Positions 928-22,774 of a stretch of DNA of 32,000 nt are shown piece by piece (position 1 is the stretch's first letter; every line of letters starts with the position of its first letter). A program made the translations under genes and the position numbers. The DNA lies in contig NC_009664.2 of NCBI RefSeq assembly GCF_000017305.1, positions 3,420,001 to 3,452,000 of the forward strand. Direction: 5' to 3'. The stretch comes from Kineococcus radiotolerans SRS30216 = ATCC BAA-149 (lineage in GTDB: Bacteria; Actinomycetota; Actinomycetes; Actinomycetales; Kineococcaceae). The notes under the pieces are model-generated. The model was given only the letters and a program-made list of their open reading frames with translations, ran no database searches and was not told the origin of the DNA.

Positions 928-3900
928 GTGCGCTCCGGGGTCGCGGTGCGGGTGCTCGGCGCCCTCGAGGTCGGTTCATCCACGCAGGCGTCCGTGCTGC
1001 CGCCCACGCTGCGCACCGTGCTGGCCGCGCTCGTGGTCGACGCCGGGCACGTCGTGCCCGCCTCCGTGCTCGCCGAGCGGGTCTGGGACGAGGCGGGGAT
1101 CCGGCCGGCCACCTCCACGCTGCACAGCTCCGTGTCCCGGCTGCGCCGGCTGCTCGAACCCGGCGCCGGCCCCTGGCAGGTGCTGGTCACCCGCGCCCCC
1201 GGCTACCGGCTCGCCCTGGCGCCGGAGGCCCTGGACGCCGCCCGCTTCGAGCAGCTGCTGCGCCGCGCGCTGGCCGCCGCGGACACCGACCCGGGCGGGG
1301 CGCGCGCCGACGTCGCCGACGCGCTGGCGCTGTGGCGCGGCCCGGCCTACGCCGACGTCGAGGCCGGCTTCGCCCGCCAGGAGGCCCGTCGCCTGGAGAA
1401 CCTCCGGCTGGAGGGCCTGGAGCTGGCCGCCCGCCTGGACCTCGTGCTCGGCCGGCACCGGGAGGTCGTCCCCGACCTCGAGGAGCTGGTGCTGGCCCAC
1501 CCGCTGCGCGAGGAGCTGCGCGCCGCGCTCGTGCTCGCGCTCTACCGGTGCGGGCGCCAGGCCGACGCCTTGCAGGCCTTCGAGGACGGCCGGCGGCTGC
1601 TCGCCGACGAGCTGGGCATCGACCCCGGCCCGCAGCTGCGCCGGCTGCACGAGGCGGTGCTGCGCCAGGACCCCGCGCTGGAGGCCCCCGTCGTCCCGGC
1701 GGCCGACCCCCCGTCCCCGCCGTCGTCGCCGTCGTCCCCGGGGGCCGGGGACGACGGCGACGTCCCGGCCCGCACCCCGGTGCGCACCTCCACGAGCGCG
1801 CTGCCGCTAGCCACCACCGAGCTGCTCGGGCGCGCGGAGGACCTGCAGCGGCTGCTGGAGCTGCTGGAGCAGGCGCGGCTGGTGACGCTCACCGGCACCG
1901 GGGGCGTGGGCAAGACCCGGCTGGCCGCCGCGGCCGCCGAAGCCGCCGCCGAGCGCTTCGAGGGCGGCACCGTCCTGGTGCCGCTGGCTACCCTCGACGA
2001 CGCCCGGGCCGTGCTGCCCGCCGTCGTGCGGGCGCTGGGGCTGCCCGACGAGGCGGGGGCGGGCGCGCTCGACGCCGTCGCCGCCCACGTCGCGGACTCG
2101 CGGACCCTGCTGGTGCTGGACAACCTCGAGCACCTGCTGGACGCCGCCGCGGACGTCGCGGCCCTGGTGCGCCGCTGCCCGCGGCTGGTCGTCCTGGTCA
2201 CCTCCCGCGCCCCGCTGCGCGTCAGCGGGGAGGTCGAGCACCGGGTCGAGCCGCTCGGCCTGCCCGCCACCGGCGAGGACGTCCTGGGCTCCCCGGCCGT
2301 GCAGCTGTTCGCCGAGCGGGCGCGGGCCGTCGCGCCCGGCTTCGCCGTCAGCGCGCGCAACGCCGCGGTCGTCGCCGACATCTGCCGCGCCCTCGGCGGG
2401 ATCCCGCTGGCCCTGGAGCTGGCGGCCCCCCGCATCCGCGTCCTGGACCCCGCCGAGCTGCTCCGCCGCCTCGACCACGCCCTGACCTCCGGGCCGCGCG
2501 ACCTGCCCGCCCGCCAGCGCACCATGCGCGCCACCCTGGACTGGAGCTACGGGCTGCTCGACGCCCCCACCCGGCGGCTGTACCGCCGGCTGTCCGTCTT
2601 CACCGGGGGCTGGACCCTGCCGGTGCTGGAGGACGTCGAGGGCCCCGGCGTGCTGGAGCAGCTCGAGGCGCTGGTGGAGATGTCGCTGGTCACGGTGACC
2701 TTCTCCCGGGGCCGGCCGCGCTACGCGATGCTCGTGCCCACGCAGCAGCACGCCCGTCGCCTGCTCGAGGAGGACGAGCTCGCGGAGGTCTCCCGCGCGC
2801 ACGCCGAGGCCCACCTGCGGCTGGCCGAGCGGGCCGCCCCGCACTACCGCGGCGAGGGGCAGGTCGAGTGGCTGGAGCGCGTCGAGCTGGAGCACGCCAA
2901 CCTGCTCGCGGCCTTCGAGTGGGCGATGGGCGCCGGGGAGCACGCCACCGCCGCCCGCCTGACCTGGGCGACCTGGTTGTTCTGGTGGTTGCGCGGGCAC
3001 GTGCTCGTCGGCCGCCGCTGCGCGCGCGCCGCCGTGGACGCCACCGCCGACAGCCCGCTGGAGGGCCCCGCCGCGCTGGTCCCGGTGCGGGCGCGGATCG
3101 CGCTGGCCGCGATGGCCTTCGCCCAGGGCGACTTCGCCGCGGCCGACGAGGGGTGGGCCCGGGCCTGCGCCGACGCCGAGCGCGCCGTCGGCGTCGACCC
3201 CGTCGAGCGCGACGAGGCGCGGGCGAACTGCACCGCCGGGGCGGGCATCTGCGCCCAGGTGACCGGGGACCTCGCGGCCGCCGCCGACGCCCACCGGCGG
3301 GCGATCGCGCTGGCCCGGACCCTGCCCGAGGACACCTACGGGCCGTGGATCGTGCGGCTGAACCTGGTGTGGCTGGGCACGGTGCACTGGCGCGCCGGGG
3401 AGGCCGGCCCGGCCCGTCGCCAGGCCGAGGAGGGGCTGGCGCTGGCCCGCCGCGACGGCGACCGGCTGGCCACCTTCCTCGCCCTCTACAACCTCGCGCA
3501 GGCCGAGGCCGCCCCCGCCCCCGCCCGGGCGCTGCGCCACCTGCAGGAGGGCATCGAGCTGTCCGAGCAGATGGGCGACCTGGCCAACCTGGCCTACTTC
3601 CTGGAGGCGCTGGTGGTGCTGCGCGCCGCCGGCGGGCGGGCGGGCGACGACGGGGACCACGGGGACCACGGGAACGAGGCGGACGACGCGGCGGCGCTGG
3701 TGCGCCTGCTGGGGGCGGCGAGCGCGGCGCGCGAGACCGTCGGCTTCGAGGTCCACAACTACTACCTCCGCGACAGCGTGGGCCGCGCCGAGGCCGAGGC
3801 CCGCCTGCGCGCGCAGCTGGGGGAGCAGCGCTACGCGCGGGAGCTGGCCGCCGGGCGGCGGGCGCCGGTGGCCGAGTCCGTGCGCACCGCCGTCCGCGTG

Positions 3901-3945: not shown

Positions 3946-4429
3946 TGTCCAGGCCCACGAAGCGCGGCCGGGTGAACGGCCAGCACCGGCGCACCCAGGT
4001 CACCACGGCCGCGGTCAGCAGGTGCTCCACCTCCCCGCCGCGCAGGGCGTCGACCACCCACCAGGTGACGTCCACGTCCGCGTCGCGGGTGCCGCCGCGG
4101 GGCGGGTCCAGGTACACGCAGCCCAGCAGCTCGCTCTCCACCTCGTCGAGGAGGGCGTAGGAGAAGGACAGGCCCTCGGCCATCTCCCGCTCCTGGCGCT
4201 GCAGGTCGCAGAGGTCGTCGGCCGCGGCCAGCTCCGCCGGCGGCCAGCCCCACGCCTCGCCGAAGCAGGACCACAGGTGCTCGCGCGCCCCCCGCACGGC
4301 GGGCAGGTCCAGGTCGAGGTCCAGGGCGCGCAACGGGCGCAGGTGGTGCCCGGAGGGCAGCTCGAGGCGGGTGGGGTGCCGGAACCAGGACGGCAGCCAG
4401 GGGTCAGCACGGGTCGCGGGGTCGGCCAT
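3908..4429 (-). CDS. Putative GNAT-family N-acetyltransferase (173 aa)
   Basis: This is the C-terminal part of track ORF 3908..4882, starting at ATG 4429 (MADPATRADPWLP...). GGAGG lies just upstream of the ATG. The segment FSYALLD..ELLGCVYLDP...VTWWV...WPF resembles small GNAT acetyltransferases as I recall them. The family call is by pattern only. Confidence 0.55.
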   Translation of the reverse strand: MADPATRADPWLPSWFRHPTRLELPSGHHLRPLRALDLDLDLPAVRGAREHLWSCFGEAWGWPPAELAAADDLCDLQRQEREMAEGLSFSYALLDEVESELLGCVYLDPPRGGTRDADVDVTWWVVDALRGGEVEHLLTAAVVTWVRRCWPFTRPRFVGLDISWRDWARSGEP

Positions 4430-4452
4430 GCCCTCCACGGTCGCGCGGCGCG

Positions 4453-4473
4453 CTTGCGGCGGGCTTGCGAGAC
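4453..4473 (+). promoter_or_regulatory. Copy B of the shared 21-nt element, in the 127-bp divergent GNAT / whiB7-like intergenic region
   Basis: Identical to 856-876. It lies 24 nt from the GNAT start codon (opposite strand) and 84 nt upstream of the whiB7-like GTG. Confidence 0.45.
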
Positions 4474-4504
4474 GCTGCCGGGTGCGGCCCGCGGGGAGGG
4501 GGTC

Positions 4505-4531
4505 GGCGCGGGCCGGGCGCGGGCCGGGCGC
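4505..4531 (+). repeat. 11-nt tandem repeat ggcgcgggccg x ~2.5 in the whiB7-like leader
   Basis: Direct reading: the unit repeats at 4505-4515 and 4516-4526, with a partial third copy to 4531. Confidence 0.6.
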
Positions 4532-4556
4532 AAGGCCGGCGGACCACGCTGGAGCC

Positions 4557-4814
4557 GTGTTCGACCCCGAGACCCTTGAGAACCTCCCCTGCACCCGGGT
4601 GCCCCCGGAGCTCTTCTTCGTCGAGCGTCCCGACCAGGTCGCCGTGGCCAAGGCGCTGTGCGTGGGGTGCCCCGTGCGCACCGCCTGCCTGGCGGGCGCC
4701 CTGGAGCGCCGCGAGCCCGTCGGGATCTGGGGCGGTGAGCTCTTCGTCGACGGCGTGGCCGTCGCCGCCAAGCGCGGCCCCGGCCGCCCGCGCAAGGTGC
4801 CCGTCGCCGTCTGA
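4557..4814 (+). CDS. whiB7: WhiB7-like Fe-S transcription factor with C-terminal AT-hook (85 aa)
   Basis: The four Cys are spaced as in WhiB proteins (LPC...CVGCPVRTAC), followed by the G(I/V)WGGE turn (EPVGIWGGELF) and a C-terminal AT-hook KRGPGRPRK. The protein aligns by eye along its whole length with mycobacterial WhiB7 as I remember it. The start is uncertain: GTG 4557 has GGAG only 2 nt upstream, and an in-frame ATG at 4428 would add an Arg-rich extension. Confidence 0.85.
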   Translation: MFDPETLENLPCTRVPPELFFVERPDQVAVAKALCVGCPVRTACLAGALERREPVGIWGGELFVDGVAVAAKRGPGRPRKVPVAV

Positions 4815-4847
4815 GCGGCGGGGACCCCGCGCGGGCGGGGAGGACGG

Positions 4848-7403
4848 CTAGGAGGCGTCGCGCTCCTGCGCGCGCAGCGCACGGGCCACCCCGTCGCGGT
4901 TCTCCAGCACGAGGCGTCGCAGGGCCGGCGGGGCGTCGGTCTCCTCGGCCAGCCACCGGTCGGTGCGCTCCAGCAGGGCGGCGTCGGCGAGGTCCAGCGG
5001 GTACAGCCCCGTCACGATCTGCTGGGCCATCTCGTTGGTCCGCTCGGCCCACACCCCGCGCAGCGCCGCGAAGTACGGCTCCACGAAGGGCCGCAGCAGG
5101 GCCTCGTCGTGCGCGCGGCCGAAGCCGGCGATGACGGAGGCCTGCACCGCGTTGGGCAGGTCGCCGCGCTCGACGACGTCGGCCCACGCCCGCTGCTTGG
5201 CCTGCGCCGTGGGGACGGCCGCCCGCGCGGCCGCGGCCGAGCGCTGCCCGGTGGCGGTGGCGTCGCGGGCCAGCTCGGCCTCGACGGCCTCCGCCCCGAG
5301 CGCGCCCCCGGCCACGAGGGCGGTCAGCAGCGCCCAGCGCATGTCGGCGTCGACCTCGAGCCCCTCGATGGCCCGGGTGCCGTCGTAGAGCCCCCCGACG
5401 ACGGCGAGGTGCTCCTCGCTGCGGGCGAAGGAGGCGAAGGCGCGGGCGAACTGCAGCTGGGTGTCGCTGCCGGGGGCCGCGGCCCGCAGCAGCTCCAGCA
5501 GCGTCGTGGCCGTGCGGGTGCGGACCTCCTCGCGCCGGGCCGGGTCGGTGTAGAGCTCCACCGTCGTCGTCAGCTGCCGCAGCAGCACCAGGGCCACCGT
5601 GGAGTCCTCGGTGGCGGCGTTCCCGGGCAGCAGGGTGCTCAGCAGCAGGTCGACGTAGTCGCGAGCGGGGGACTCCCCGTCGCGGGTCATGTCCCACAGC
5701 GCCGCCGAGACCAGCGAGCGGGGCAGGGAGTCGCGGAACGCGTCCAGGTGCTGCAGCGCCGCGGTCAGCGAGCTCTCGTCGAGCCGGATCTTGGCGTAGG
5801 CGAGGTCGTCGTCGTTGACCAGCAGCAGGTCCGGGCGCTTGCGCCCCACCAGCTGCGGCAGGTCGGTGCTGGCGCCCGCGGCGTCCAGCTCGATCCGCTC
5901 GGTGCGCTCGAAGGTGCCCCCGACGAGGTCGTAGCAGCCCAGGGCGATGCGGTGCGAGCGCAGGTGCGGGTGCTCCGCGGGGGCCTCCTGCCGCAGCGAC
6001 GCCGCGGTGACGGTGCCGTCCGCGTCGGTGGTCAGCACCGGGCGCAGGGTCGCGACGCCGGCGGTCTCCAGCCACTCCCGGGACCAGGCGCTCAGGTCGC
6101 GGCCGGAGGTGGTCTCCAGCTCGCGCAGCAGGTCGACGAGCTCGGTGTTGCCGAAGGCGTGGCGGGCGAAGTAGGCCCGGACCCCGGAGAGGAACTCCTC
6201 GCGGCCCACGTAGGCGACGAGCTGCTTGAGGACGCTGGCGCCCTTGGCGTAGGTGATGCCGTCGAAGTTGACCTCGACGTCCTCGAGGTCGTTGATCTCG
6301 GCGACGATCGGGTGCGTCGTGGGGAGCTGGTCCTGGCGGTAGGCCCAGGACTTCTCCAGGGAGTTGAAGGTCGTCCACGACCCCACCCACTCGGTGGCCT
6401 CGGCCGCGGCGAGCGTGGAGGCGAACTCCGCGAAGGACTCGTTGAGCCACAGGTCGTTCCACCAGCGCATGGTCACCAGGTCGCCGAACCACATGTGCGC
6501 CAGCTCGTGCAGCACGGTGACGACGCGGCGCTCGACGGTGGCCCGGGGGACCTTGGAGCGGAAGACGTAGCTCTCCACGAAGGTCACCGCCCCGGCGTTC
6601 TCCATGGCCCCGGCGTTGAACTCCGGCACGAACACCTGGTCGTACTTGGCGAAGGGGTAGGGGCGGTCGAACTCGCGCTCGAAGAACTCGAAGCCCTGCT
6701 TGGTGGCCCGGACGACGTTGTCGGCGTCGAGGTGCTGCACGAGGGACTTGCGGCAGTAGATGCCCAGCGGGATCGTGCGGCCGTCGGCGGAGACGAGGGA
6801 GTCCTCCGACCCCTCGTAGGGCCCGGCGATGACCGCCGTCACGTAGGACGACAGCCGCGGGGTCTTCTCGAAGGTCCAGCGGGTGCCGGCCTCGACCGGG
6901 TGCTGCACGGCGACGGGGGCGTTGGAGACGACCCGCCAGTGCGCCGGGGCGGTGACGGTGAAGGTGAACTCGGCCTTGAGGTCCGGCTGCTCGAACACCG
7001 CGTAGACGCGGCGGGAGTCGGCGACCTCGAACTGGGAGTACAGGTAGACCTCGTCGTCGACGGGGTCGACGAAGCGGTGCAGCCCCTCGCCGGTGTTCAT
7101 GTAGCGGCAGTCGGCGACCACGAGCAGCTCGTTCTCGGCGGCCAGGCCGTCGAGGGCGATGCGCGCCTCGTCGGCGACGGCGGCCGGGTCGAGCGCGGTC
7201 CCGTTGAGGACCACCTCGTGCACCCGGGCGCTGATGAGGTCGATGAAGGTGGAGGCGCCGGGGGTGGCGGTGAAGCGCACCGTCGTCGTGGAGCGGAACG
7301 TCTCCGGCCCGGTCGTCAGGTCCAGGTCGACGTCGTAGTGCTCCACGGCCACGAGCGCCGCACGGGCCCGCGCCTCCTCGCGCGTCAGGTTCTCGCCGGG
7401 CAC
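4848..7403 (-). CDS. pepN: Aminopeptidase N (M1 family), 851 aa
   Basis: N-terminus VPGENLTREEARARAALV is typical of actinobacterial PepN. GAMEN is present (EFNAGAMENAG), as is the zinc motif HELAHMWFGDLV...WLNESFAEF. AAGGA lies 7 nt upstream of GTG 7403. The longer track ORF (to 7931) is an upstream artefact. Confidence 0.93.
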   Translation of the reverse strand: MPGENLTREEARARAALVAVEHYDVDLDLTTGPETFRSTTTVRFTATPGASTFIDLISARVHEVVLNGTALDPAAVADEARIALDGLAAENELLVVADCRYMNTGEGLHRFVDPVDDEVYLYSQFEVADSRRVYAVFEQPDLKAEFTFTVTAPAHWRVVSNAPVAVQHPVEAGTRWTFEKTPRLSSYVTAVIAGPYEGSEDSLVSADGRTIPLGIYCRKSLVQHLDADNVVRATKQGFEFFEREFDRPYPFAKYDQVFVPEFNAGAMENAGAVTFVESYVFRSKVPRATVERRVVTVLHELAHMWFGDLVTMRWWNDLWLNESFAEFASTLAAAEATEWVGSWTTFNSLEKSWAYRQDQLPTTHPIVAEINDLEDVEVNFDGITYAKGASVLKQLVAYVGREEFLSGVRAYFARHAFGNTELVDLLRELETTSGRDLSAWSREWLETAGVATLRPVLTTDADGTVTAASLRQEAPAEHPHLRSHRIALGCYDLVGGTFERTERIELDAAGASTDLPQLVGRKRPDLLLVNDDDLAYAKIRLDESSLTAALQHLDAFRDSLPRSLVSAALWDMTRDGESPARDYVDLLLSTLLPGNAATEDSTVALVLLRQLTTTVELYTDPARREEVRTRTATTLLELLRAAAPGSDTQLQFARAFASFARSEEHLAVVGGLYDGTRAIEGLEVDADMRWALLTALVAGGALGAEAVEAELARDATATGQRSAAAARAAVPTAQAKQRAWADVVERGDLPNAVQASVIAGFGRAHDEALLRPFVEPYFAALRGVWAERTNEMAQQIVTGLYPLDLADAALLERTDRWLAEETDAPPALRRLVLENRDGVARALRAQERDAS

Positions 7404-17518: not shown

Positions 17519-17536
17519 CCCCGGTCCGGGCACGAC

Positions 17537-17570
17537 GAAGGGCCCCGCACCTCGAGGTGCGGGGCCCTTC
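17537..17570. terminator. Bidirectional terminator hairpin between convergent clpX and the YceI-fusion gene (34-nt perfect palindrome)
   Basis: gaagggccccgcacctcgaggtgcggggcccttc is fully self-complementary, giving a ~15-bp stem with a tcga loop. It lies between the stops at 17518 and 17597. Confidence 0.7.
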
Positions 17571-17596
17571 GCCGTGCCCGGCCCGGGCGGGTGGGG

Positions 17597-18454
17597 CTAC
17601 TGCTGCAGGACGGTCTGGACGTCGATGGCGACCTTGAGGGTGGTGCCGAAGACGGCGACGCCGATGCCGACGGCCTGGTTCCAGTTCATCTTGAAGTCGT
17701 CGCGGTGCAGCTCGGTGGTGGCCGAGAACGCCGCGCGGGTCCCGCCCCAGGGGTCCGGCCCGCTGCCGGCGTAGGACAGCTGCAGCTGCACCGGACGGGT
17801 GGTGCCCAGCAGGGTGAGGTCCCCGGCCAGCACCCACCCCTCGGCGCCGCGCTGGACCCCGGACGCGCTGAAGGTCAGCGTGGGGAACCGGGCGGTGTCG
17901 AGGAAGTCGGGGGAGCGCAGGTGCTCGTCGCGCTGGGCGTTGCCGGTGTCGATGGAGGTCGCGTCGATCTCGACCTGCACCGTCGAGCGGGTCACGTCCT
18001 CGGGGACGGTGACGACCCCGGAGAAGTTCGTGAACCGCCCGTGCACCGCGGACAGGCCGAGGTGGTGGGCGGTGGCGGAGATGGTGGAGTGGGTGACGTC
18101 GATGGCCCAGACCCCGGGGGGCGGGACGTCGCTGCCGCCCTGGCGGCGCAACCGGACCTCGCCGACGGACCACGCCCCGGCCGCGGGGACGACGACGCTG
18201 GTGGCGCGCGGGTCGTGGGCGGGGGCGGCGACCAGCATGGTCGCCGCGCCCGCCGGGACCCCGAGGAGGGTGAAGGTCCCGTCGCCACCGGTCACCGCGC
18301 GGGCGACCTGCGACCCGTCGGCGCCGAGCAGGGTGACCGAGGCGCCGGTGACGGGCCAGCCCTCGCGGGTCAGGACCCGCCCCTCGCCCGTCACCGCGGC
18401 CTGCGCGCCGGCCGCGGGGTCGGCGCGCAGGTCGGTCTCGCGGTCGGGACTCAC
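17597..18454 (-). CDS. Fusion protein: N-terminal carboxypeptidase-regulatory-like beta-sandwich domain + C-terminal YceI-like (polyisoprenoid/lipid-binding) domain; no signal peptide seen
   Basis: Residues ~21-104 (VTGEGRVLTREGWPVTGASVTLLGADGSQVARAVTGGDGTFTLLGVPAGAATMLV...) fit the CarboxypepD_reg-type pattern. Residues ~115-285 (WAIDVTHSTISATAHHLGLSAVHGRFTNFSG...IDTGNAQRDEHLRSPDFLDTARFPTLTF...GDLTLLGTTRPV) are a YceI signature. The GTG start overlaps the pump's TGA stop (GTGA at 18451-18454). Confidence 0.85.
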   Translation of the reverse strand: MSPDRETDLRADPAAGAQAAVTGEGRVLTREGWPVTGASVTLLGADGSQVARAVTGGDGTFTLLGVPAGAATMLVAAPAHDPRATSVVVPAAGAWSVGEVRLRRQGGSDVPPPGVWAIDVTHSTISATAHHLGLSAVHGRFTNFSGVVTVPEDVTRSTVQVEIDATSIDTGNAQRDEHLRSPDFLDTARFPTLTFSASGVQRGAEGWVLAGDLTLLGTTRPVQLQLSYAGSGPDPWGGTRAAFSATTELHRDDFKMNWNQAVGIGVAVFGTTLKVAIDVQTVLQQ

Positions 18455-21003
18455 CGGCGGTCCTCGCCGACCCGGGAGGTGTCCTCGAAGCGGGTGAGGT
18501 CCAGCGTCGAGGGGGCGTCGCCGGAGCCCAGGGTGATCTGCGCGGCGGACACGGTGTCCTCCTCGATGTCGACGCTGGTGGCGACCGGGGCGAAGCCGGC
18601 CGCGGTCAGGGTGTAGTGGCCCCCGGCCAGGTCCTCGAAGGAGTAGCTGCCGTCGGCGCCGGTGAGGACCGAGCCGACGACCTCGCCGGAGGAGTCGACG
18701 AGGGTGACCGCGGCCTCCTTCAGGACCCGCCCGTCGCTGGCGGCGACGACCGTGCCGGTGAGGCGGCCCCCGCCGGTGAGGACGAGGTCGCAGGCCAGGG
18801 CCCCGGAGTCGGGGACCTCGACGCCGCGGGCCAGCGGCCGGTGCGACTCGCTCTGGGCGGTCAGCACGTAGCTGCCCCCCATGAGCTGGTCGAAGGCGTA
18901 GCTGCCGCCCCCGTCGGTGCGGGTGGAGCCGACGACCTCACCGGTGACGTCGGTGAGGGTCACCAGGGCGCCGCGCACCCCGTGGTGGTCGCCGGCGTCG
19001 ACGTCGCCGGTGACCTCGTGGGCCAGCACCCGGCCGGTGATGGCCGAGCGGCCCGAGAGGGTCACGTCGCGGGTGATCGAGGTGTCGCCGACCCCCACGA
19101 GCGTCGCGGAGGGGGCCACGTGGGCCGCGGCGACGATCAGCAGGTAGGTGCCGCCGGTCGGCAGGGCGAGGCGGTAGGAGCCGTCCGCGCCGGTGGAGGT
19201 GCGCGAGACCTGCTGACCTGACTGGTCGGCCAGGGTCACCACGGCGCCGGCGAGCGGGCGCTGGTCGTGGTGGCGCACGGCGCCGGACAGCGAGAGCCCG
19301 GTGTCGGTGCGGGTGGGCTGGGCGGGCACGCTCGTCGTCTCCTCCCGGTCGGGGCGCGCGGCGCCGTGGGCCCCGGGGGTGCCGGTGGTCGTGGCGGCGA
19401 CGCGGTCGGGCGAGCTGGTCGTCGCCTCCGCGACATCCTGGCCGGTGCCGTCGTCGCTGCGCAACGCGCGCTCCTTGAAGAAGAGCGTGATGACGAACGC
19501 GATGAGGGCGAAGGGGGCCGCGAGGAGGAACACGTCGGCGATGGAGGAGCCGTAGGCGGCCTGGACGACCGCGCGCAGCGGCGCGGGGATGGCGTCGAGG
19601 TCGGGGACGCCGGTGCTGGAGCCCAGGGCGCTCGTGGCGGCGGCCGGGTCGATGCCAGCGGTGCTCAGGCCGGTCTCGAGGTGGCTGGTGACGCGGTGGC
19701 CGAGGACGGCGCCGAGCGCGGAGACGCCGATCGCCCCGCCGAGGCTGCGGGCGAAGGCGACGAAGGAGCTGGCCGAGCCCATGTCGCGGGCGTCGGCGAC
19801 GTTCTGCACGGCGAGCACGAGGTTCTGCATCATCATGCCGACGCCGAGGCCGATGAGGGCCATGTACGGGGCGACGACCCAGTAGTTCGTGTCGTACTCG
19901 ATGGTGCCCATGAGGGCGAGCCCGGCGGTGAGCAGGACGCCCCCGACGACGAGCCACGCCTTCCACTTCCCGGTGCGGGTGATGGCCTGCCCGGCGACGG
20001 TGGAGGCCAGGAAGAGCCCGGCGATCATCGGGATCGTCATGACCCCGGCCATCGTGGGCGACTCGTGGCGGGCGAGCTGGAAGTACTGGCTGAGGAAGAT
20101 CGTGGCGCCGAACATGGCGACCCCGACGAAGAGGCTGGCCGCGGCGGAGAGCGCGATCGTGGGGTTGCGGAAGAACTTCAGCGGGACGATCGGCTCCTTG
20201 GCCCGGTGCTCGGCCAGGACGGCCAGGGCCAGGAAGACGACACCGGCGGCGACCAGCGCCACGGTCCACCAGGACGCCCAGTCGAACTCGGTGCCGGCCA
20301 GGGAGACCCAGATGAGCAGGGCGGAGATGCCCAGGGCCAGCAGGATCGCGCCGAGGTAGTCGATCGACACCTCGCGCCGGGGCTGCTCGGGCAGCTTGAG
20401 CTTGAACTGGAGGACGAAGAAGGCGATGACCGCGAACGGGACGCCGACGTAGAAGCACCAGTGCCAGGACAGGTGCTCGGTGAGCACGCCGCCGATGAGC
20501 GGACCGCCCACGGTGGCCAGGGCGAAGGTGGCCCCGAGGTAGCCGGAGTAGCGGCCGCGCTCGCGCGGGCTGACCATCGAGGCGAGGATCACTTGGGCGA
20601 GGGCGAGCAGGCCGCCGCCGCCGAGGCCCTGGAACACGCGCAGGGTGATGAGCATCCCCATGCTGGTGGACAGCCCGGCGATGGCGGAGGCCACGACGAA
20701 GATGACCAGGGCGATCTGGACGAGCAGCTTCTTGGAGAAGAGGTCGGCCAGCTTGCCCCAGATGGGCGTGGAGATCGTGGTCGCGAGCAGCGCCGCGGTG
20801 ACGACCCAGGTGTAGCCGGACTCGGTGCCGTGGAGGTCGTTGACGATCCTCGGCAGGGCGTTCGAGACGACCGTCGACGACAGGATCGCGACGAACATGC
20901 CGAGCAGCAGGCCGGACAGCGCCTCGAGGATCTCCTTGTGGGACATCTTCGGCGCGACGCCCGGGGCGGGCTGGGTCGAGGTGGTGGGGGTCGTGGTGCT
21001 CAT
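18451..21003 (-). CDS. DHA2-type (EmrB/QacA-like, 14-TMS) MFS transporter with a ~280-aa C-terminal extension of three tandem carboxypeptidase-regulatory-like repeats (850 aa)
   Basis: ATG 21003 (MSTTTPTTSTQPAPGV...). I count 14 hydrophobic segments by eye. MFS motifs are present (GKLADLFSKKLL, LRVFQGLGGGG). After TMS14 (IADVFLLAAPFALIAFVITLFF) comes a ~60-aa low-complexity linker, then three repeats of 85-104 aa. Each repeat has G.V....G.P..GA.VTL.D..G..V....T...G.Y.......G.Y.L. The rest of track ORF 18451..22188 is an artefact. Confidence 0.88.
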   Translation of the reverse strand: MSTTTPTTSTQPAPGVAPKMSHKEILEALSGLLLGMFVAILSSTVVSNALPRIVNDLHGTESGYTWVVTAALLATTISTPIWGKLADLFSKKLLVQIALVIFVVASAIAGLSTSMGMLITLRVFQGLGGGGLLALAQVILASMVSPRERGRYSGYLGATFALATVGGPLIGGVLTEHLSWHWCFYVGVPFAVIAFFVLQFKLKLPEQPRREVSIDYLGAILLALGISALLIWVSLAGTEFDWASWWTVALVAAGVVFLALAVLAEHRAKEPIVPLKFFRNPTIALSAAASLFVGVAMFGATIFLSQYFQLARHESPTMAGVMTIPMIAGLFLASTVAGQAITRTGKWKAWLVVGGVLLTAGLALMGTIEYDTNYWVVAPYMALIGLGVGMMMQNLVLAVQNVADARDMGSASSFVAFARSLGGAIGVSALGAVLGHRVTSHLETGLSTAGIDPAAATSALGSSTGVPDLDAIPAPLRAVVQAAYGSSIADVFLLAAPFALIAFVITLFFKERALRSDDGTGQDVAEATTSSPDRVAATTTGTPGAHGAARPDREETTSVPAQPTRTDTGLSLSGAVRHHDQRPLAGAVVTLADQSGQQVSRTSTGADGSYRLALPTGGTYLLIVAAAHVAPSATLVGVGDTSITRDVTLSGRSAITGRVLAHEVTGDVDAGDHHGVRGALVTLTDVTGEVVGSTRTDGGGSYAFDQLMGGSYVLTAQSESHRPLARGVEVPDSGALACDLVLTGGGRLTGTVVAASDGRVLKEAAVTLVDSSGEVVGSVLTGADGSYSFEDLAGGHYTLTAAGFAPVATSVDIEEDTVSAAQITLGSGDAPSTLDLTRFEDTSRVGEDRR
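18454..19299 (-). other. Region encoding the three tandem beta-sandwich repeats of the pump tail (protein-level repeats, diverged at DNA level)
   Basis: Repeat 1 runs GLSLSGAVRHH...VTLSGRS. Repeat 2 runs AITGRVLAHE...LVLTGGG. Repeat 3 runs RLTGTVVAAS...ITLGSG plus a short tail. Boundaries come from hand counting (282 aa). Confidence 0.7.
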
Positions 21004-21509
21004 GCGTTGCCCTGCAACTGCTTCTCCCGGGTGTGGGTCGTGGTGTCCGGCGACGTCGCCGCTGGTCCGGTGCGGGCGCACCCGCCGCCGGTGGCGGTGG
21101 CGGTGGCCGTGGTGGCGAGCCGGTCGAGGAGGCGGGTGAGGTCCCCGACCTCCTGGTCGGGCCAGTCGGAGAGCCGCTCGACGAGCTTGTCGACGAGGTC
21201 GCGGCGGGTCCGGCGCAGTTCCCCGGTCCCCTCGGCGCTGACGGTCAGCCGCTGGGAGCGGCCGTCGTCGGGGTCGGGGGAGGAGTCGAGGAACCCCTTC
21301 TGGCGCAGGTGGGCGACCTGGCGGCTGACCGTGGAGAGGTCGAGGGAGAGGTGCTCGGCGACCTCGCTGATGCGCATCGAGCCCCGCTGGTGCACGACGG
21401 CGAGCGTCGCGACGGCGGGGGTGCTCAGCGCGCCGACGAGCGCGCGGCGTGCCCGGAGCAGGTCCGGGAACACGTCGACGAGCGCGGCGCACGCGTGGGG
21501 TGTGGCCAT
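21000..21509 (-). CDS. MarR-family transcriptional regulator (MarR-1) with a low-complexity Thr/Ala C-terminal tail
   Basis: ATG 21509 (MATPHACAALVDVFPDLL...). The winged helix-turn-helix is MRISEVAEHLSLDLSTVSRQVAHLRQKGFLD...DGRSQRLTVS. GAAGG lies 5 nt upstream. Its TGA overlaps the pump ATG (ATGA at 21000-21003). Confidence 0.85.
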   Translation of the reverse strand: MATPHACAALVDVFPDLLRARRALVGALSTPAVATLAVVHQRGSMRISEVAEHLSLDLSTVSRQVAHLRQKGFLDSSPDPDDGRSQRLTVSAEGTGELRRTRRDLVDKLVERLSDWPDQEVGDLTRLLDRLATTATATATGGGCARTGPAATSPDTTTHTREKQLQGNA

Positions 21510-21525
21510 GTCGACCTTCGAGCTC

Positions 21526-21575
21526 GGTTGGTGTGTGCAAGCAACCATATCTCCGGATGGTTGCACCATGCAACC
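21526..21575 (-). promoter_or_regulatory. Promoter (minus strand TTGCAT-18 nt-TATGGT) overlapped by GCAACC/GGTTGC half-site palindromes; candidate MarR operator(s)
   Basis: On the plus strand there is a perfect inverted repeat, gcaaccat (21541-21548) - 8 nt - atggttgc (21557-21564). A further GCAACC lies at 21570-21575 and a degenerate ggttgg at 21526-21531. On the minus strand the -35 TTGCAT is 21573-21568 and the -10 TATGGT is 21549-21544. Confidence 0.5.
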
Positions 21576-21608
21576 CGAGCTGCCGGTGCGCCCCCGCGGG
21601 CGGAGGGC

Positions 21609-22037
21609 TCAGATGAGGGCGTTGAGGCGGCCCAGCAGCGCGGCGAGCTGGGTCATGTCCTCCTCCGGCCACCCCTCCAGGCGGGAGTGCAGGCGCTGGC
21701 GGCGGGCCGCGCGGGCGGCGTGCACCTTCTCCAGACCCTCGGCGGAGAGGGTCAGGCGCACGGCGCGGCCGTCGGTGGGGTCCGCCTCGCGGGTGACCAG
21801 GCCCAGGCGCTCCAGGAGCTGGACCTGGCGGGACAGCGTCGGCTTGCCGATGCCGAAGAACGTCGCCAGGTCCGAGGGGCGGGTCTCGCCGACGTCGTCG
21901 AGGCGGACCAGCAGGCTGTAGGCCTCCGGCTCCAGGTCGGGGTGGACGCTGCGCGCGGTCTCCCGGTTGATCGCCCGCGAGCGCCGCAGCAGGACGGCGA
22001 GCTCGCGCTCCAGCGCTTCGGCAGGACCCGTGACCAT
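21609..22037 (-). CDS. MarR-family transcriptional regulator (MarR-2), 142 aa
   Basis: Track ORF 21609..22037. The winged helix-turn-helix is TRPSDLATFFGIGKPTLSRQVQLLERLGLVTREADPTDGRAVRLTLS. Confidence 0.88.
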   Translation of the reverse strand: MVTGPAEALERELAVLLRRSRAINRETARSVHPDLEPEAYSLLVRLDDVGETRPSDLATFFGIGKPTLSRQVQLLERLGLVTREADPTDGRAVRLTLSAEGLEKVHAARAARRQRLHSRLEGWPEEDMTQLAALLGRLNALI

Positions 22038-22043
22038 CCCAGG

Positions 22044-22049
22044 AACCTA
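22044..22049 (-). promoter_or_regulatory. -10-like hexamer TAGGTT (minus strand) 6 nt before ATG 22037 (leaderless-type layout)
   Basis: The minus strand reads ggTAGGTTcctgggATG. No Shine-Dalgarno sequence is present. Confidence 0.4.
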
Positions 22050-22126
22050 CCGGTCCGCCCGCGGGGGCGGGGGAGCGGTCGCCGACGCGCCGGGGCGGAA
22101 CGCTCGACGTGCGCGCCCCGGCCCCG

Positions 22127-22161
22127 TACTGTCCATCCCGATGCATCGAACCGATGCATCG
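22127..22161 (+). promoter_or_regulatory. -10-like TACTGT followed by two tandem copies of CCGATGCATCG (each containing the perfect 10-nt palindrome CGATGCATCG); candidate PadR operator
   Basis: TACTGT is at 22127-22132. The copies are at 22138-22148 and 22151-22161 (13-nt period). The second copy ends 16 nt upstream of the PadR GTG at 22178. Confidence 0.5.
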
Positions 22162-22177
22162 GGACGGAGGGGAACCG

Positions 22178-22774
22178 GTGGTCCGCAAACGGGGTGACGT
22201 CCTGCTGCTCGCGGTGCTCGCCCTGCTGGCCGACGGGCCGCTGCACGGCTACGAGGTGCGCAAGCGCCTCGACCTGCGGCTGGGGGTCTTCCGGGCCCTG
22301 TCCTACGGGACGCTCTACCCGGCGCTGCGGGCCCTGCAGGCCGGTGGCTGCATCACCGAGACGACCCAGGAGCGCCTGCCGGGCACGGTGAGCCCCAAGC
22401 GCGCCCGCGTCGTCTACGAGATCACCGCCCACGGCCGGGACCGCCTGGCCGCGATGCTCGACGAGTCCGGTCCCGAGGCGTGGGAGGACGACGCCTTCGG
22501 GGTCCACTTCGCCCTCTTCACCCGGGTGGCGCCGCGCACCCGGCTGCGCATCCTCGAGGGCCGCCGAGCCCGGCTGCTCGAGCGGCTGGAGCAGATGAAC
22601 CGCTCCATCGACCGCACCCAGGCCCAGCTCGACTCCTACGCCCTCGAGGCGCAGCGGCACGGCGTGGAGACCGTCCGCAGCGAGGTCGACTGGCTCGACC
22701 GCCTCATCACCGCCGAGCACCACCCGCAGCCGACCCTGCGGACCACCCCGAGCAACCCAGAGGAGAACCCCTGA
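22178..22774 (+). CDS. PadR-family transcriptional regulator
   Basis: [23 protein letters not shown]...[19 protein letters not shown]...[11 protein letters not shown] is a PadR winged helix, followed by a C-terminal coiled-coil-like domain. GGAGG lies 7 nt upstream of GTG 22178. Its stop overlaps the ino1 ATG (TGATG). A PadR-like gene also precedes ino1 in mycobacteria, as I recall. Confidence 0.85.

Follow-up and report, generated by a model that had tools for sequence, protein, structure and literature searches.

Why a membrane exporter and the soluble protein encoded next to it should carry the same accessory domain is the question raised by a gene module of Kineococcus radiotolerans, which was analysed within a 32,000-nt stretch of the chromosome (the window). 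Four minus-strand genes, all found where the initial annotation had placed them, encode two MarR regulators, a 14-helix DHA2 MFS pump and a beta-sandwich–YceI fusion:

21609..22037, minus strand: MarR-2 CDS, 142 aa, with its own upstream region (PF12802, 51.1 bits)
21000..21509, minus strand: MarR-1 CDS, 169 aa, putative autoregulator, SAV4189/SCO4032 orthologue (PF01047, 56.5 bits)
18451..21003, minus strand: DHA2 MFS pump with C-terminal tail, 850 aa (translation; TIGR00711)
17597..18454, minus strand: beta-sandwich–YceI fusion CDS, 285 aa (Pfam PF13620 and PF04264)

Both regulators exceeded the MarR-family Pfam cutoffs, and the MarR-1 start at 21509 was backed by alignment of the upstream region with that of K. 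aurantiacus. The pump protein gave a 100% match to a K. radiotolerans EmrB/QacA subfamily transporter, and its proposed domain content was confirmed by Pfam, with MFS_1 (E 3e-54) and PF13620 in three stretches (E 1e-35; 122 bits, cutoff 32). NCBIfam TIGR00711 (DHA2) scored 244.8 bits against 230.2, with model positions 4–484 of 485 covered. The AlphaFold2 model comprised 14 TM helices, a disordered linker and three beta-sandwiches:

19474..20946, minus strand: 14-helix DHA2 transporter core, aa 20–510 (AlphaFold2 model and TIGR00711)
19300..19473, minus strand: disordered, predicted cytoplasmic linker from TM14 to the tail, ~aa 511–568 (AlphaFold2 pLDDT, alignment)
18529..19296, minus strand: tail of three tandem transthyretin-like beta-sandwiches, aa 570–649, 651–742 and 746–825 (PF13620)

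Linker residues 519–565 were modelled with pLDDT < 50, and this segment was weakly conserved in a 66-sequence alignment, which also showed residue 20 to be a second conserved Met. The three tail sandwiches reached pLDDT > 90, and exactly three repeats were present in 118 of 120 homologues. With 14 TM helices the pump should have its C-terminus in the cytoplasm, and the tail is predicted to lie there. Because the solved relatives of the tail fold (TIE protein, pilins, SdrD, SusC N-terminal extension) are extracytoplasmic without exception, a cytoplasmic role for this fold would be without precedent.

The downstream protein gave a 100% match to a K. radiotolerans YceI family protein, of which RefSeq also holds a 265-aa version starting 20 codons downstream. 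Here too Pfam bore out the predicted domains, with PF13620 at residues 24–94 (41.7 bits, cutoff 32.3) and PF04264 at residues 116–280 (154.9 bits against 23.7, E 2.6e-45), and AlphaFold2 (pLDDT 88.9) gave one beta-sandwich and a YceI barrel:

18143..18391, minus strand: N-terminal transthyretin-like beta-sandwich ('fourth copy'), aa 22–104 (PF13620, structure match)
17615..18109, minus strand: YceI lipocalin-like 8-stranded barrel, aa 116–280 (PF04264 and Foldseek)

Using Foldseek, the barrel was matched to 1y0g (E. coli YceI; TM 0.90), 7bwl (0.91), 1wub (0.85) and BcnB (0.89), and the N-domain was similar to the carboxypeptidase D transthyretin-like domain 5aq0 (TM 0.82). The barrel matches include YceI structures solved with polyisoprenoid (1wub; also 2x32/2x34) as well as YceI proteins described as antibiotic binders (7bwl, BcnA/BcnB; PMC5350466). 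The accessory domain said to be common to pump and partner is real as a type, the N-domain being 30–35% identical to the tail repeats; identity within each repeat class is 50–58%, and by this measure the N-domain is a class of its own with no special closeness to any single repeat. No Sec/Tat-like signal or hydrophobic N-terminal segment was detected in ~114 fusion proteins, and the YceI fusion is therefore predicted to be cytoplasmic.

The marR-1–pump–yceI operon, downstream of MarR-2, has its own promoter and operators, as read from the sequence:

21561..21573, minus strand: candidate operator site 1, TTGCATGGTGCAA, overlapped by the promoter (TTGC-N5-SCAA pattern)
21544..21573, minus strand: putative marR-1–pump–yceI promoter
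21528..21540, minus strand: candidate operator site 2, TTGCACACACCAA, 19 nt upstream of the MarR-1 ATG (TTGC-N5-SCAA pattern)

The putative promoter consists of a -35 element TTGCAT (21573–21568), an 18-nt spacer and a -10 element TATGGT (21549–21544). It was not called by a strict sigma-70 scan; TAnnnT hexamers stand at the matching place in K. gynurae, K. aurantiacus and Saccharopolyspora. The TTGC-N5-SCAA pattern occurs in the window only at 21528–21540 and 21561–21573 (chance expectation 0.19), site 2 is kept in K. aurantiacus, and five other genera likewise have operators of this type in front of their MarR-1 orthologues.

The S. avermitilis orthologues of MarR-1 and pump are SAV4189 and SAV4190 (SCO4032 and SCO4031 in S. 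coelicolor); gene order and relative orientation agree, and in both species 13-bp TTGC...CAA palindromic operators of one type overlap the promoter. We take the Streptomyces counterpart to be sav_4189–sav_4190 plus an unnamed downstream YceI gene, in a region presumably numbered SCO4032–SCO4030. PMC6036246 reports that sav_4189–sav_4190 is co-transcribed and autorepressed, that its operators lie over the -35/-10 elements of a mapped promoter, and that hygromycin B and thiostrepton induce it 70- to 140-fold. The orthology leads us to expect autorepression and drug-triggered derepression in Kineococcus as well; autorepression by MarR-1, shown for the S. avermitilis orthologue, we infer from the conserved operators. 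Just upstream of the MarR gene, nearly every Streptomyces locus carried 1–3 copies of the footprinted SAV4189 motif TTGCCYKHRSCAA, which occurred nowhere else within those ~15-kb loci. The Streptomyces MarR–pump(tail)–YceI cassette sits in a sigma-factor/upp/ANTAR/STAS neighbourhood, and SCO4031 and SCO4032 are among the genes up-regulated on rapid chromosome relaxation (PMC6637917). Kineococcus differs from SAV4189–SAV4190 in its second MarR, its 4-nt gene overlaps and operator half-sites that diverge at central positions. SAV4190 is treated as an ordinary efflux protein in PMC6036246, which mentions neither tail nor downstream YceI gene; its accessible text describes no resistance phenotype for the sav_4190 deletion. 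The initial annotation knew of no characterised MFS system of this kind. As regards architecture this stands, no description of an MFS tail with a beta-sandwich–YceI protein having been found in the searchable literature, but regulator and pump have orthologues in an operon already studied.

The start–stop overlaps are real: ATGA at 21000–21003 is common to the MarR-1 stop and pump start, and GTGA at 18451–18454 to the pump stop and YceI start. A 4-nt overlap is also kept in Kineococcus, Microlunatus, Cellulomonas and one metagenome contig, whereas the pump and YceI genes of Streptomyces loci lie ~15–300 nt apart. Co-translation in fixed stoichiometry was accordingly an over-reading, since the overlaps are lineage-specific and missing in most Streptomyces loci; translational coupling, as judged from gene spacing, is a lineage-specific trait. 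MarR-2 orthologues precede the module in Kineococcus and Saccharopolyspora and follow the YceI gene in Cellulomonas and Sphaerisporangium, a MarR-2-like gene adjoins the module in four other genera, and none was found in the Streptomyces loci; on these gene neighbourhoods MarR-2 is a recurrent extra outside the core. The double MarR control proposed for the module was likewise an overstatement: the putative promoter and operators of the operon lie downstream of MarR-2. The module regulator is of MarR or TetR type depending on lineage, and because the two are interchangeable the regulators fall outside the conserved core.

The 3' end of the module is marked by a hairpin:

17520..17587 (approx.), no strand assigned: long GC-rich hairpin where the clpX and YceI-fusion genes converge

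Its predicted folding energy was -74.9 kcal/mol (z -9.2; equally good folds in 0/200 shuffles), and Rfam returned just sub-threshold, miRNA-like chance matches. A bidirectional terminator had been proposed at 17537–17570; the hairpin after the last gene is real and longer than claimed, but it has no T-run and was for that reason missed by a consensus terminator scan. It is likely a bidirectional, U-tract-less terminator.

The pairing of pump and YceI fusion was very strongly conserved, as the proposed partnership predicts: in each of the 79 informative genome loci that carry the fusion, the gene immediately before it, in the same orientation, encodes a tail-bearing pump. Further inspected loci, from Microlunatus, Cellulomonas, Kineococcus spp., Sphaerisporangium and one metagenome contig, have this arrangement too; in Kutzneria the two are separated by genes for a MarR regulator and a free triple-sandwich protein. 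Even tail pumps with DHA2 cores just 26–32% identical to that of the Kineococcus pump are accompanied by the fusion, and across these divergent cores tail and YceI keep 32–59% identity. Tail and YceI protein are probably a functional pair. Several genomes encode tail pumps without any YceI gene, so the role of the tail must extend beyond docking YceI, and in Pseudonocardiales (Kutzneria, Amycolatopsis) genes beside tail pumps encode a colinear counterpart of the tail as a free-standing protein.

Our preferred reading of the whole, combining YceI barrel, tail docking and pump, is given a probability of about 0.5. MarR-1 would bind the two TTGC-N5-SCAA operators over the -35/-10 and repress marR-1, pump and YceI gene until a ligand freed it from them. 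The pump would act as a 14-helix DHA2 proton antiporter bearing, behind a flexible linker of ~50 residues, three cytoplasmic sandwiches. At the cytoplasmic membrane face the YceI barrel would bind a drug or an isoprenoid- or quinone-like lipid, in either case a hydrophobic or amphipathic compound, and the beta-sandwich of the fusion would tether the barrel to the tail, so that substrate would be locally concentrated around the inward-facing pump. The tail may be a general docking platform with the YceI fusion as one optional client and the free-standing triple-sandwich proteins as a possible second. The comparative data fit docking of YceI on the tail through like-with-like contacts, as the initial annotation proposed, but fall short of proof; physical docking with substrate hand-off is, taken by itself, rather less likely than not. 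Against docking stand the separate class of the N-domain, the tail pumps that have no YceI gene, the extracytoplasmic relatives of the tail fold, the spacing of the two genes in Streptomyces and the fact that no single-polypeptide pump–YceI protein turned up among the 120 best pump and 150 best YceI relatives.

Known systems resemble parts of this scheme. The nearest solved structures to the pump core are EmrB, EfpA, MHAS2168 and QacA; EmrB, QacA and EfpA share the 14-helix DHA2 core (TIGR00711; TM 0.81–0.84 to 8zal, 7y58 and 8ufd), but EmrAB-TolC, QacA and EfpA are without a C-terminal beta-sandwich array, and the EmrB accessory is a periplasmic adaptor, for which the Kineococcus module has no gene. 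In mycobacteria LprG–Rv1410c (P55) likewise couples, in one operon, an MFS exporter to a soluble-fold partner that binds hydrophobic ligands, and the Rv1410 homologue is the above MHAS2168. LprG is a lipoprotein on the external face of the membrane with a fold unlike YceI, whereas Kineococcus has a signal-less YceI barrel with beta-sandwich and a pump with cytoplasmic tail. SusC-type TonB-dependent transporters (9hfj, Foldseek rank 50) also carry an appended transthyretin-like (CarboxypepD_reg-like) N-terminal sandwich, but there it is one periplasmic domain of an outer-membrane barrel in Bacteroidota, and no partner bears the same domain. BcnA/YceI, genetically coupled to the membrane protein cytochrome b561 (LcoA/YceJ), has the same barrel fold; antibiotic stress induces it, and its ligands are hydrophobic antibiotics or lipids (PMC9113575, PMC5350466). 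It differs in being secreted or periplasmic, in lacking a beta-sandwich domain and in a partner that is not a transporter.

Rather doubtful is the alternative that the YceI fusion is an independent cytoplasmic sponge, sequestering or protecting against hydrophobic toxic compounds by itself and merely co-regulated with the pump, the common beta-sandwich reflecting shared ancestry or a third partner (e.g. the membrane surface). YceI-family lipocalins do serve as stand-alone antibiotic binders (BcnA, PMC5350466; 7bwl), and cytoplasmic stand-alone YceI proteins are common, since signal peptides are likewise missing from the majority of close plain YceI relatives. Pump and YceI genes are not translationally coupled in Streptomyces, and no single-polypeptide pump–YceI fusion was found among the best 120 pump or best 150 YceI relatives. 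Co-regulation, however, leaves unexplained why the fusion form was never found apart from a tail-bearing pump and why YceI follows the tail across divergent pump cores and MarR/TetR regulators.

Endogenous lipid or isoprenoid handling, which is compatible with the preferred reading, is unlikely as the primary function; the pair would export or flip a polyprenyl compound, quinone, oxidised lipid or metabolic intermediate, with YceI as lipid chaperone and drug induction secondary. Besides the polyisoprenoid ligands of YceI structures, it draws on detoxification of lipid-derived radicals by BcnA and its membrane partner (PMC9113575) and on the avermectin titre, raised 56–67% by sav_4190 deletion and credited by the authors to precursor export (PMC6036246). 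Among the nearest solved relatives of the pump are lipid-bound EfpA and an Rv1410 homologue described as a triacylglyceride transporter, and the Streptomyces cassette is located in the conserved chromosome core; against this, the S. avermitilis MarR answers to hygromycin B and thiostrepton supplied from outside, the regulators are of drug-sensing type and differ between lineages, and the best NCBIfam partial matches are antibiotic exporters such as Tcr3, OtrB and TcmA.

That tail and YceI protein act outside the membrane, on the cell-envelope side, is highly improbable: CarboxypepD_reg, SdrD-B and YceI domains are usually found there, and every solved structural relative of the tail, or of YceI (E. 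coli YceI, BcnA, HP1286), is extracytoplasmic, but the even TM number (14) and full-length DHA2 match place the pump C-terminus on the side of the N-terminus, Lys/Arg residues stand just after TM14, and the fusion proteins carry no export signal.

The locus is very probably, taking operon identity and regulation together, the Kineococcus form of a widespread actinobacterial xenobiotic-responsive efflux operon, whose regulator and pump have already been studied in Streptomyces and in which the three-domain tail of the pump, predicted to be cytoplasmic, and its YceI partner are new ground.

The four open reading frames claimed in the initial annotation were re-read from the window sequence, and the start-stop overlaps between MarR-1 and the pump and between the pump and the YceI gene are legible directly in it. 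Family matches are given below with their cutoffs in brackets.

Features of the module, with family-model matches
22037-21609, minus strand: MarR-2, regulator; PF12802, 51.1 bits (cutoff 27)
21561-21573 and 21528-21540: two operator-type sites, located after the MarR-2 stop and before the MarR-1 ATG (21509)
21509-21000, minus strand: MarR-1, regulator; PF01047, 56.5 bits (cutoff 24.6)
21003-18451, minus strand: pump, 850 aa, DHA2 core and C-terminal tail; MFS_1, E 3e-54; TIGR00711 (DHA2), 244.8 bits (cutoff 230.2), model positions 4-484 of 485; PF13620 in three stretches, E 1e-35, 122.2 bits (cutoff 32.3)
18454-17597, minus strand: YceI fusion, one beta-sandwich (N-domain) and a YceI barrel; PF13620, 41.7 bits (cutoff 32.3); YceI PF04264, 154.9 bits (cutoff 23.7)

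Both regulators pass the Pfam gathering score for a winged-helix MarR domain, and the pump and YceI fusion are 100% identical to annotated K. radiotolerans SRS30216 proteins. The module sits on the minus strand with clpP1-clpP2-clpX to one side and a PadR/inositol-1-phosphate synthase/valS group to the other, and K. aurantiacus and K. gynurae have these four genes at the equivalent position. Very long open reading frames running through or opposite the module (18451-22188; the minus strand has one of 1245 aa, the plus strand one of 884 aa) are expected at 70-77% G+C; they lack gene evidence and were rejected as genes.

Membership of the pump in the DHA2 (EmrB/QacA) family is indicated by the family-model score and by the presence of 14 TM helices. 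The AlphaFold2 model, built from 66 homologues, has these helices at residues 22-506, a disordered linker at 519-565 and three confident beta-sandwiches, in agreement with the domain composition first described; at a pTM of 0.64 it does not fix where the tail lies with respect to the core. The nearest folds to the core are the 14-TMS pumps EmrB, EfpA and QacA, with an Rv1410 homologue also among the closest structures. By family and fold the pump is thus classed as a probable DHA2 exporter, and proton-coupled drug export is predicted. Exactly three tail repeats were counted in 118 of 120 pump homologues. Unlike a tripartite EmrAB-type system, which has an adjacent HlyD/EmrA membrane-fusion adaptor gene, neither the window module nor any inspected related-locus gene table contains one.

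The YceI fusion was modelled with pLDDT 88.9 as one beta-sandwich followed by an 8-stranded lipocalin-like barrel, so that both the Pfam matches and the folds bear out the fusion described initially. The barrel matches E. coli YceI (1y0g) at TM 0.90, with TM 0.85-0.91 across 1y0g, 7bwl and 1wub, and superposes on a P. aeruginosa 'antibiotic sequester' entry, T. thermophilus TT1927b and Burkholderia BcnA/BcnB; the N-domain superposes on the carboxypeptidase D transthyretin-like domain (5aq0, TM 0.82). The protein falls below the cutoff of the E. coli YceI equivalog NF002994 (132.8 vs 232 bits) and, whereas that equivalog is secreted/periplasmic, has no signal peptide and carries the extra N-terminal domain. 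Exactly one beta-sandwich is present in 119/119 YceI-fusion homologues. It forms a class of its own, 30-35% identical to each tail repeat, and so is related to the repeats without being a recent copy of any.

Orthologous loci were collected by a scan of one genome per species, which gave ~589 fusion-encoding loci, of which 80 were fetched and 79 were informative. At 78 of the 79, MarR, DHA2 core, tail and YceI fusion follow in order on one strand; at the remaining locus, from Actinomadura, the DHA2 core is divergent and no gene matches MarR. In Streptomyces the pump, tail included, has 849 aa and precedes a 273-aa YceI fusion, and the cassette adjoins two sigma-factor genes, upp, ANTAR regulators and a STAS protein. 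We take this cassette to be SCO4030-4032 of S. coelicolor, SCO4030 presumably being the YceI gene; sav_4191 is our guess for its S. avermitilis counterpart. Most of the fetched Streptomyces loci also carry, ~2-5 kb 3' of the YceI gene on the opposite strand, a second, tail-less DHA2 pump (~27% identical), which has an adjacent TetR gene in one further inspected locus (L089).

According to Guo et al. 2018 (PMC6036246), the S. avermitilis regulator SAV4189 binds three 13-bp palindromes, TTGCCYKHRSCAA, overlapping the promoter; hygromycin B and thiostrepton release it, with 70- to 140-fold induction (shown for S. avermitilis only), and deletion of the pump gene raised avermectin yield by 56-67%. 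SCO4031 and SCO4032 are among the genes up-regulated on rapid chromosome relaxation (PMC6637917). In nearly all Streptomyces loci (~15 kb each), one to three exact copies of the SAV4189 motif lie just 5' of the MarR gene and none elsewhere, which confirms orthology with the SAV4189 operon. In the window, the relaxed pattern TTGC-N5-SCAA occurs only at 21528-21540 and 21561-21573 in 32 kb (chance expectation 0.19), and by our own count these sites agree with the strict Streptomyces consensus at 11/13 and 10/13 positions, respectively. They overlap a promoter read from the sequence (-35 TTGCAT, 18-nt spacer, -10 TATGGT). Site pairs of this kind, enclosing a TAnnnT hexamer, lie 5' of the MarR-1 orthologues of K. 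gynurae, K. aurantiacus, Cellulomonas marina, Saccharopolyspora thermophila, Streptacidiphilus and Sphaerisporangium. MarR-1 shares two features with the SAV4189/SCO4032 group, operators at its own promoter and a co-oriented MarR-pump arrangement with the same pump architecture. We put at about 0.9 the probability that the window holds an orthologous, drug-inducible, MarR-autorepressed DHA2 operon, its regulation here being predicted from the conserved operators. The SCO4121/SCO4122 system (MarR-activated MFS pump, Nag and Mehra) was rejected as the orthologue; its published intergenic sequence is that of a divergent pair and matches nothing in the 80 loci.

Given the position of the operators and promoter between MarR-2 and MarR-1, the operon is predicted to have a promoter of its own, autoregulated and placed 3' of MarR-2. 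Genes resembling MarR-2 recur beside the module: in Kineococcus and Saccharopolyspora the gene precedes it, in Cellulomonas and Sphaerisporangium it comes after the YceI gene, and the Streptomyces loci do not have it. In other lineages a divergent TetR replaces MarR. One regulator can thus stand in for another, and pump and YceI fusion together make up the conserved core. In the divergent intergenic region between MarR-2 and PadR, a 10-bp palindrome, CGATGCATCG, occurs twice, 3 nt apart (22139-22161). The pair is present in K. aurantiacus, which has PadR, and absent in K. gynurae, which is without it, so it is probably a PadR operator rather than a MarR-2 site. Immediately 5' of the MarR-2 ATG lies GGACCGGTAGGTTCCTGGG (22040-22062), identical in K. 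aurantiacus; it includes a TAGGTT hexamer 7 nt from the ATG, a hint that MarR-2 is transcribed without a leader.

Consensus promoter and terminator scans called nothing in the module region, and the promoter and the hairpin 3' of the YceI gene were identified by reading the sequence, comparing relatives and folding. The hairpin, proposed earlier as a terminator, is real and larger than first given (dG -74.9 kcal/mol, z -9.2); it has no T-run, which is why the consensus terminator scan passes over it. Rfam returned no true family at the module, the hairpin alone drawing chance miRNA-like matches.

The 4-nt overlaps are kept in Kineococcus, Microlunatus, Cellulomonas and a metagenome contig, whereas the Streptomyces pump and YceI genes are ~15-300 nt apart. 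Translational coupling is therefore a lineage trait, and the co-translation in fixed stoichiometry proposed in the initial annotation does not hold as a general feature; a 4-nt overlap is insufficient to establish fixed stoichiometry. The YceI fusion is annotated publicly in two lengths, 285 aa (start 18454) and 265 aa (start 18394). The shorter would abolish the GTGA overlap with the pump, and the 285-aa start is favoured because the 4-nt overlap is kept in other genera.

Co-conservation of the two proteins was borne out, with a tail pump at 79/79 informative fusion loci. In Microlunatus, Cellulomonas, three Kineococcus species, Kutzneria, Sphaerisporangium and the metagenome contig, too, a tail pump always accompanied the fusion. 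Tail pumps without a YceI gene occur as a K. rhizosphaerae paralogue, in Arsenicicoccus and Amycolatopsis, and as one member of a tandem pump pair on the metagenome contig. This asymmetry suggests that the tail is a general platform and the fusion an optional client. Identity to the window proteins in Actinomadura, Kutzneria and the metagenome contig is 26-32% for the DHA2 core, 32-53% for the tail and 54-59% for the YceI barrel; the Streptomyces values are ~62%, ~38% and ~56%, respectively. By these values the fusion tracks the tail rather than the transporter core. Neither the best 120 pump homologues nor the best 150 YceI representatives included a natural pump-YceI fusion polypeptide; the longest of the latter has 526 aa.

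A word-index search with the tail alone returned mostly fragments, yet exposed free-standing 250-aa triple-sandwich proteins beside tail pumps in Kutzneria and Amycolatopsis, colinear with the tail and 42-45% identical repeat by repeat. Their genes directly follow the pumps (Kutzneria locus L086, 6001-6756; Amycolatopsis deserti locus L087, 6001-6753); L087 has no YceI gene, and its next genes resemble a conservon-type set (HATPase, Robl_LC7, DUF742, ATP_bind_1). On the metagenome contig (L085) the tandem tail-bearing DHA2 pumps (1074-3575 and 4428-7004) each have their own TetR, and the YceI fusion, here 368 aa with a long Pro/Ala-rich N-terminal extension, follows the second only. A SLAC1/TehA-type transporter with a C-terminal PF13620 domain and an adjacent divergent TetR is encoded in Streptomyces sp. 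NPDC058964 (L088, 3875-5275), suggesting that the domain is a more general transporter appendage, not restricted to MFS proteins. Four Kineococcus-like proteins (P0016, P0022, P0217, P0263; 73-81% identical) are deposited under a Janthinobacterium lividum MAG or Paenibacillus sp. TRM 82003; contamination or mislabelling of these assemblies is the probable cause.

With fourteen helices and a DHA2 match over its full length, the pump is placed with its C-terminus, and hence the tail, in the cytoplasm. No signal-like hydrophobic N-terminus was found among ~114 fusion proteins, and most of the closest plain YceI relatives likewise have none. Tail and partner are both predicted to be cytoplasmic, an unusual location, since all relatives of these folds with solved structures are extracytoplasmic. 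The cytoplasmic tail and the cytoplasmic YceI partner are a conserved pair. In LprG-P55, by contrast, the partner is a secreted lipoprotein with signal peptide and lipobox, whereas the window partner has the YceI fold and no hydrophobic N-terminus; in BcnA-LcoA a cytochrome b561 gene is adjacent to YceI, whereas the window fusion adjoins an MFS pump and clpX.

In the mechanism proposed, the YceI barrel would bind a hydrophobic ligand and the fusion would be held at the pump through beta-sandwich contacts with the tail. Tentatively, the pair may belong to an unrecognised actinobacterial class of cytoplasmic accessory systems for DHA2 exporters, in which the tail array recruits soluble proteins of the same fold for hydrophobic substrate hand-off. 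The recruited proteins would be the YceI lipocalin in most lineages and the free triple-sandwich proteins in Pseudonocardiales, and would pick up hydrophobic substrates from the cytoplasm or the inner leaflet and pass them to the inward-facing pump. It is doubtful that the YceI fusion acts instead as an independent cytoplasmic sponge. Handling of endogenous lipid, isoprenoid or quinone cargo by the pair, to which YceI structures with polyisoprenoid bound, the closeness of the pump to EfpA (solved with lipids) and the Rv1410 homologue, and the avermectin phenotype of the S. avermitilis pump deletion (PMC6036246) would point, is unlikely. An extracytoplasmic tail and partner are highly improbable, being opposed by the 14 helices, the full-length DHA2 match and the missing signal peptide.

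The initial annotation knew of no characterised MFS system of such architecture. Regulator and pump are in fact already characterised as SAV4189/SAV4190, while the tail-YceI pair stands as undescribed: Guo et al. 2018 (PMC6036246) mention neither the tail nor the downstream YceI gene. No published experimental or structural statement on tail or partner, and nothing relevant linking YceI with MarR/MFS or Streptomyces efflux or CarboxypepD_reg with MFS, was found in the literature searched. The 'yceI' of sulfonamide-degradation papers is an apparently unrelated transporter gene of the same name. The accessory pair is an undescribed, widespread variant of the known regulator-pump system, its cassette occurring in Streptomyces species numbering in the hundreds and in nine or more further actinobacterial genera.

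In the usual view, MFS exporters take substrates unaided from the cytoplasm or inner leaflet; a soluble ligand-binding protein, conserved, cytoplasmic and tethered to the pump, would feed or gate an exporter in a new manner. The accessory class, if real, would parallel, on the cytoplasmic side, periplasmic adaptors and LprG-type lipid carriers. In S. avermitilis the pump is already of consequence for avermectin yield, and its regulator responds to antibiotics of foreign origin; the published SAV4189-SAV4190 system gains two candidate components, the tail and the YceI gene, in genetically tractable hosts, and the pair is directly testable in model Streptomyces. The finding also suggests that this beta-sandwich fold, known elsewhere from extracellular proteins, has a general role in the cytoplasm.
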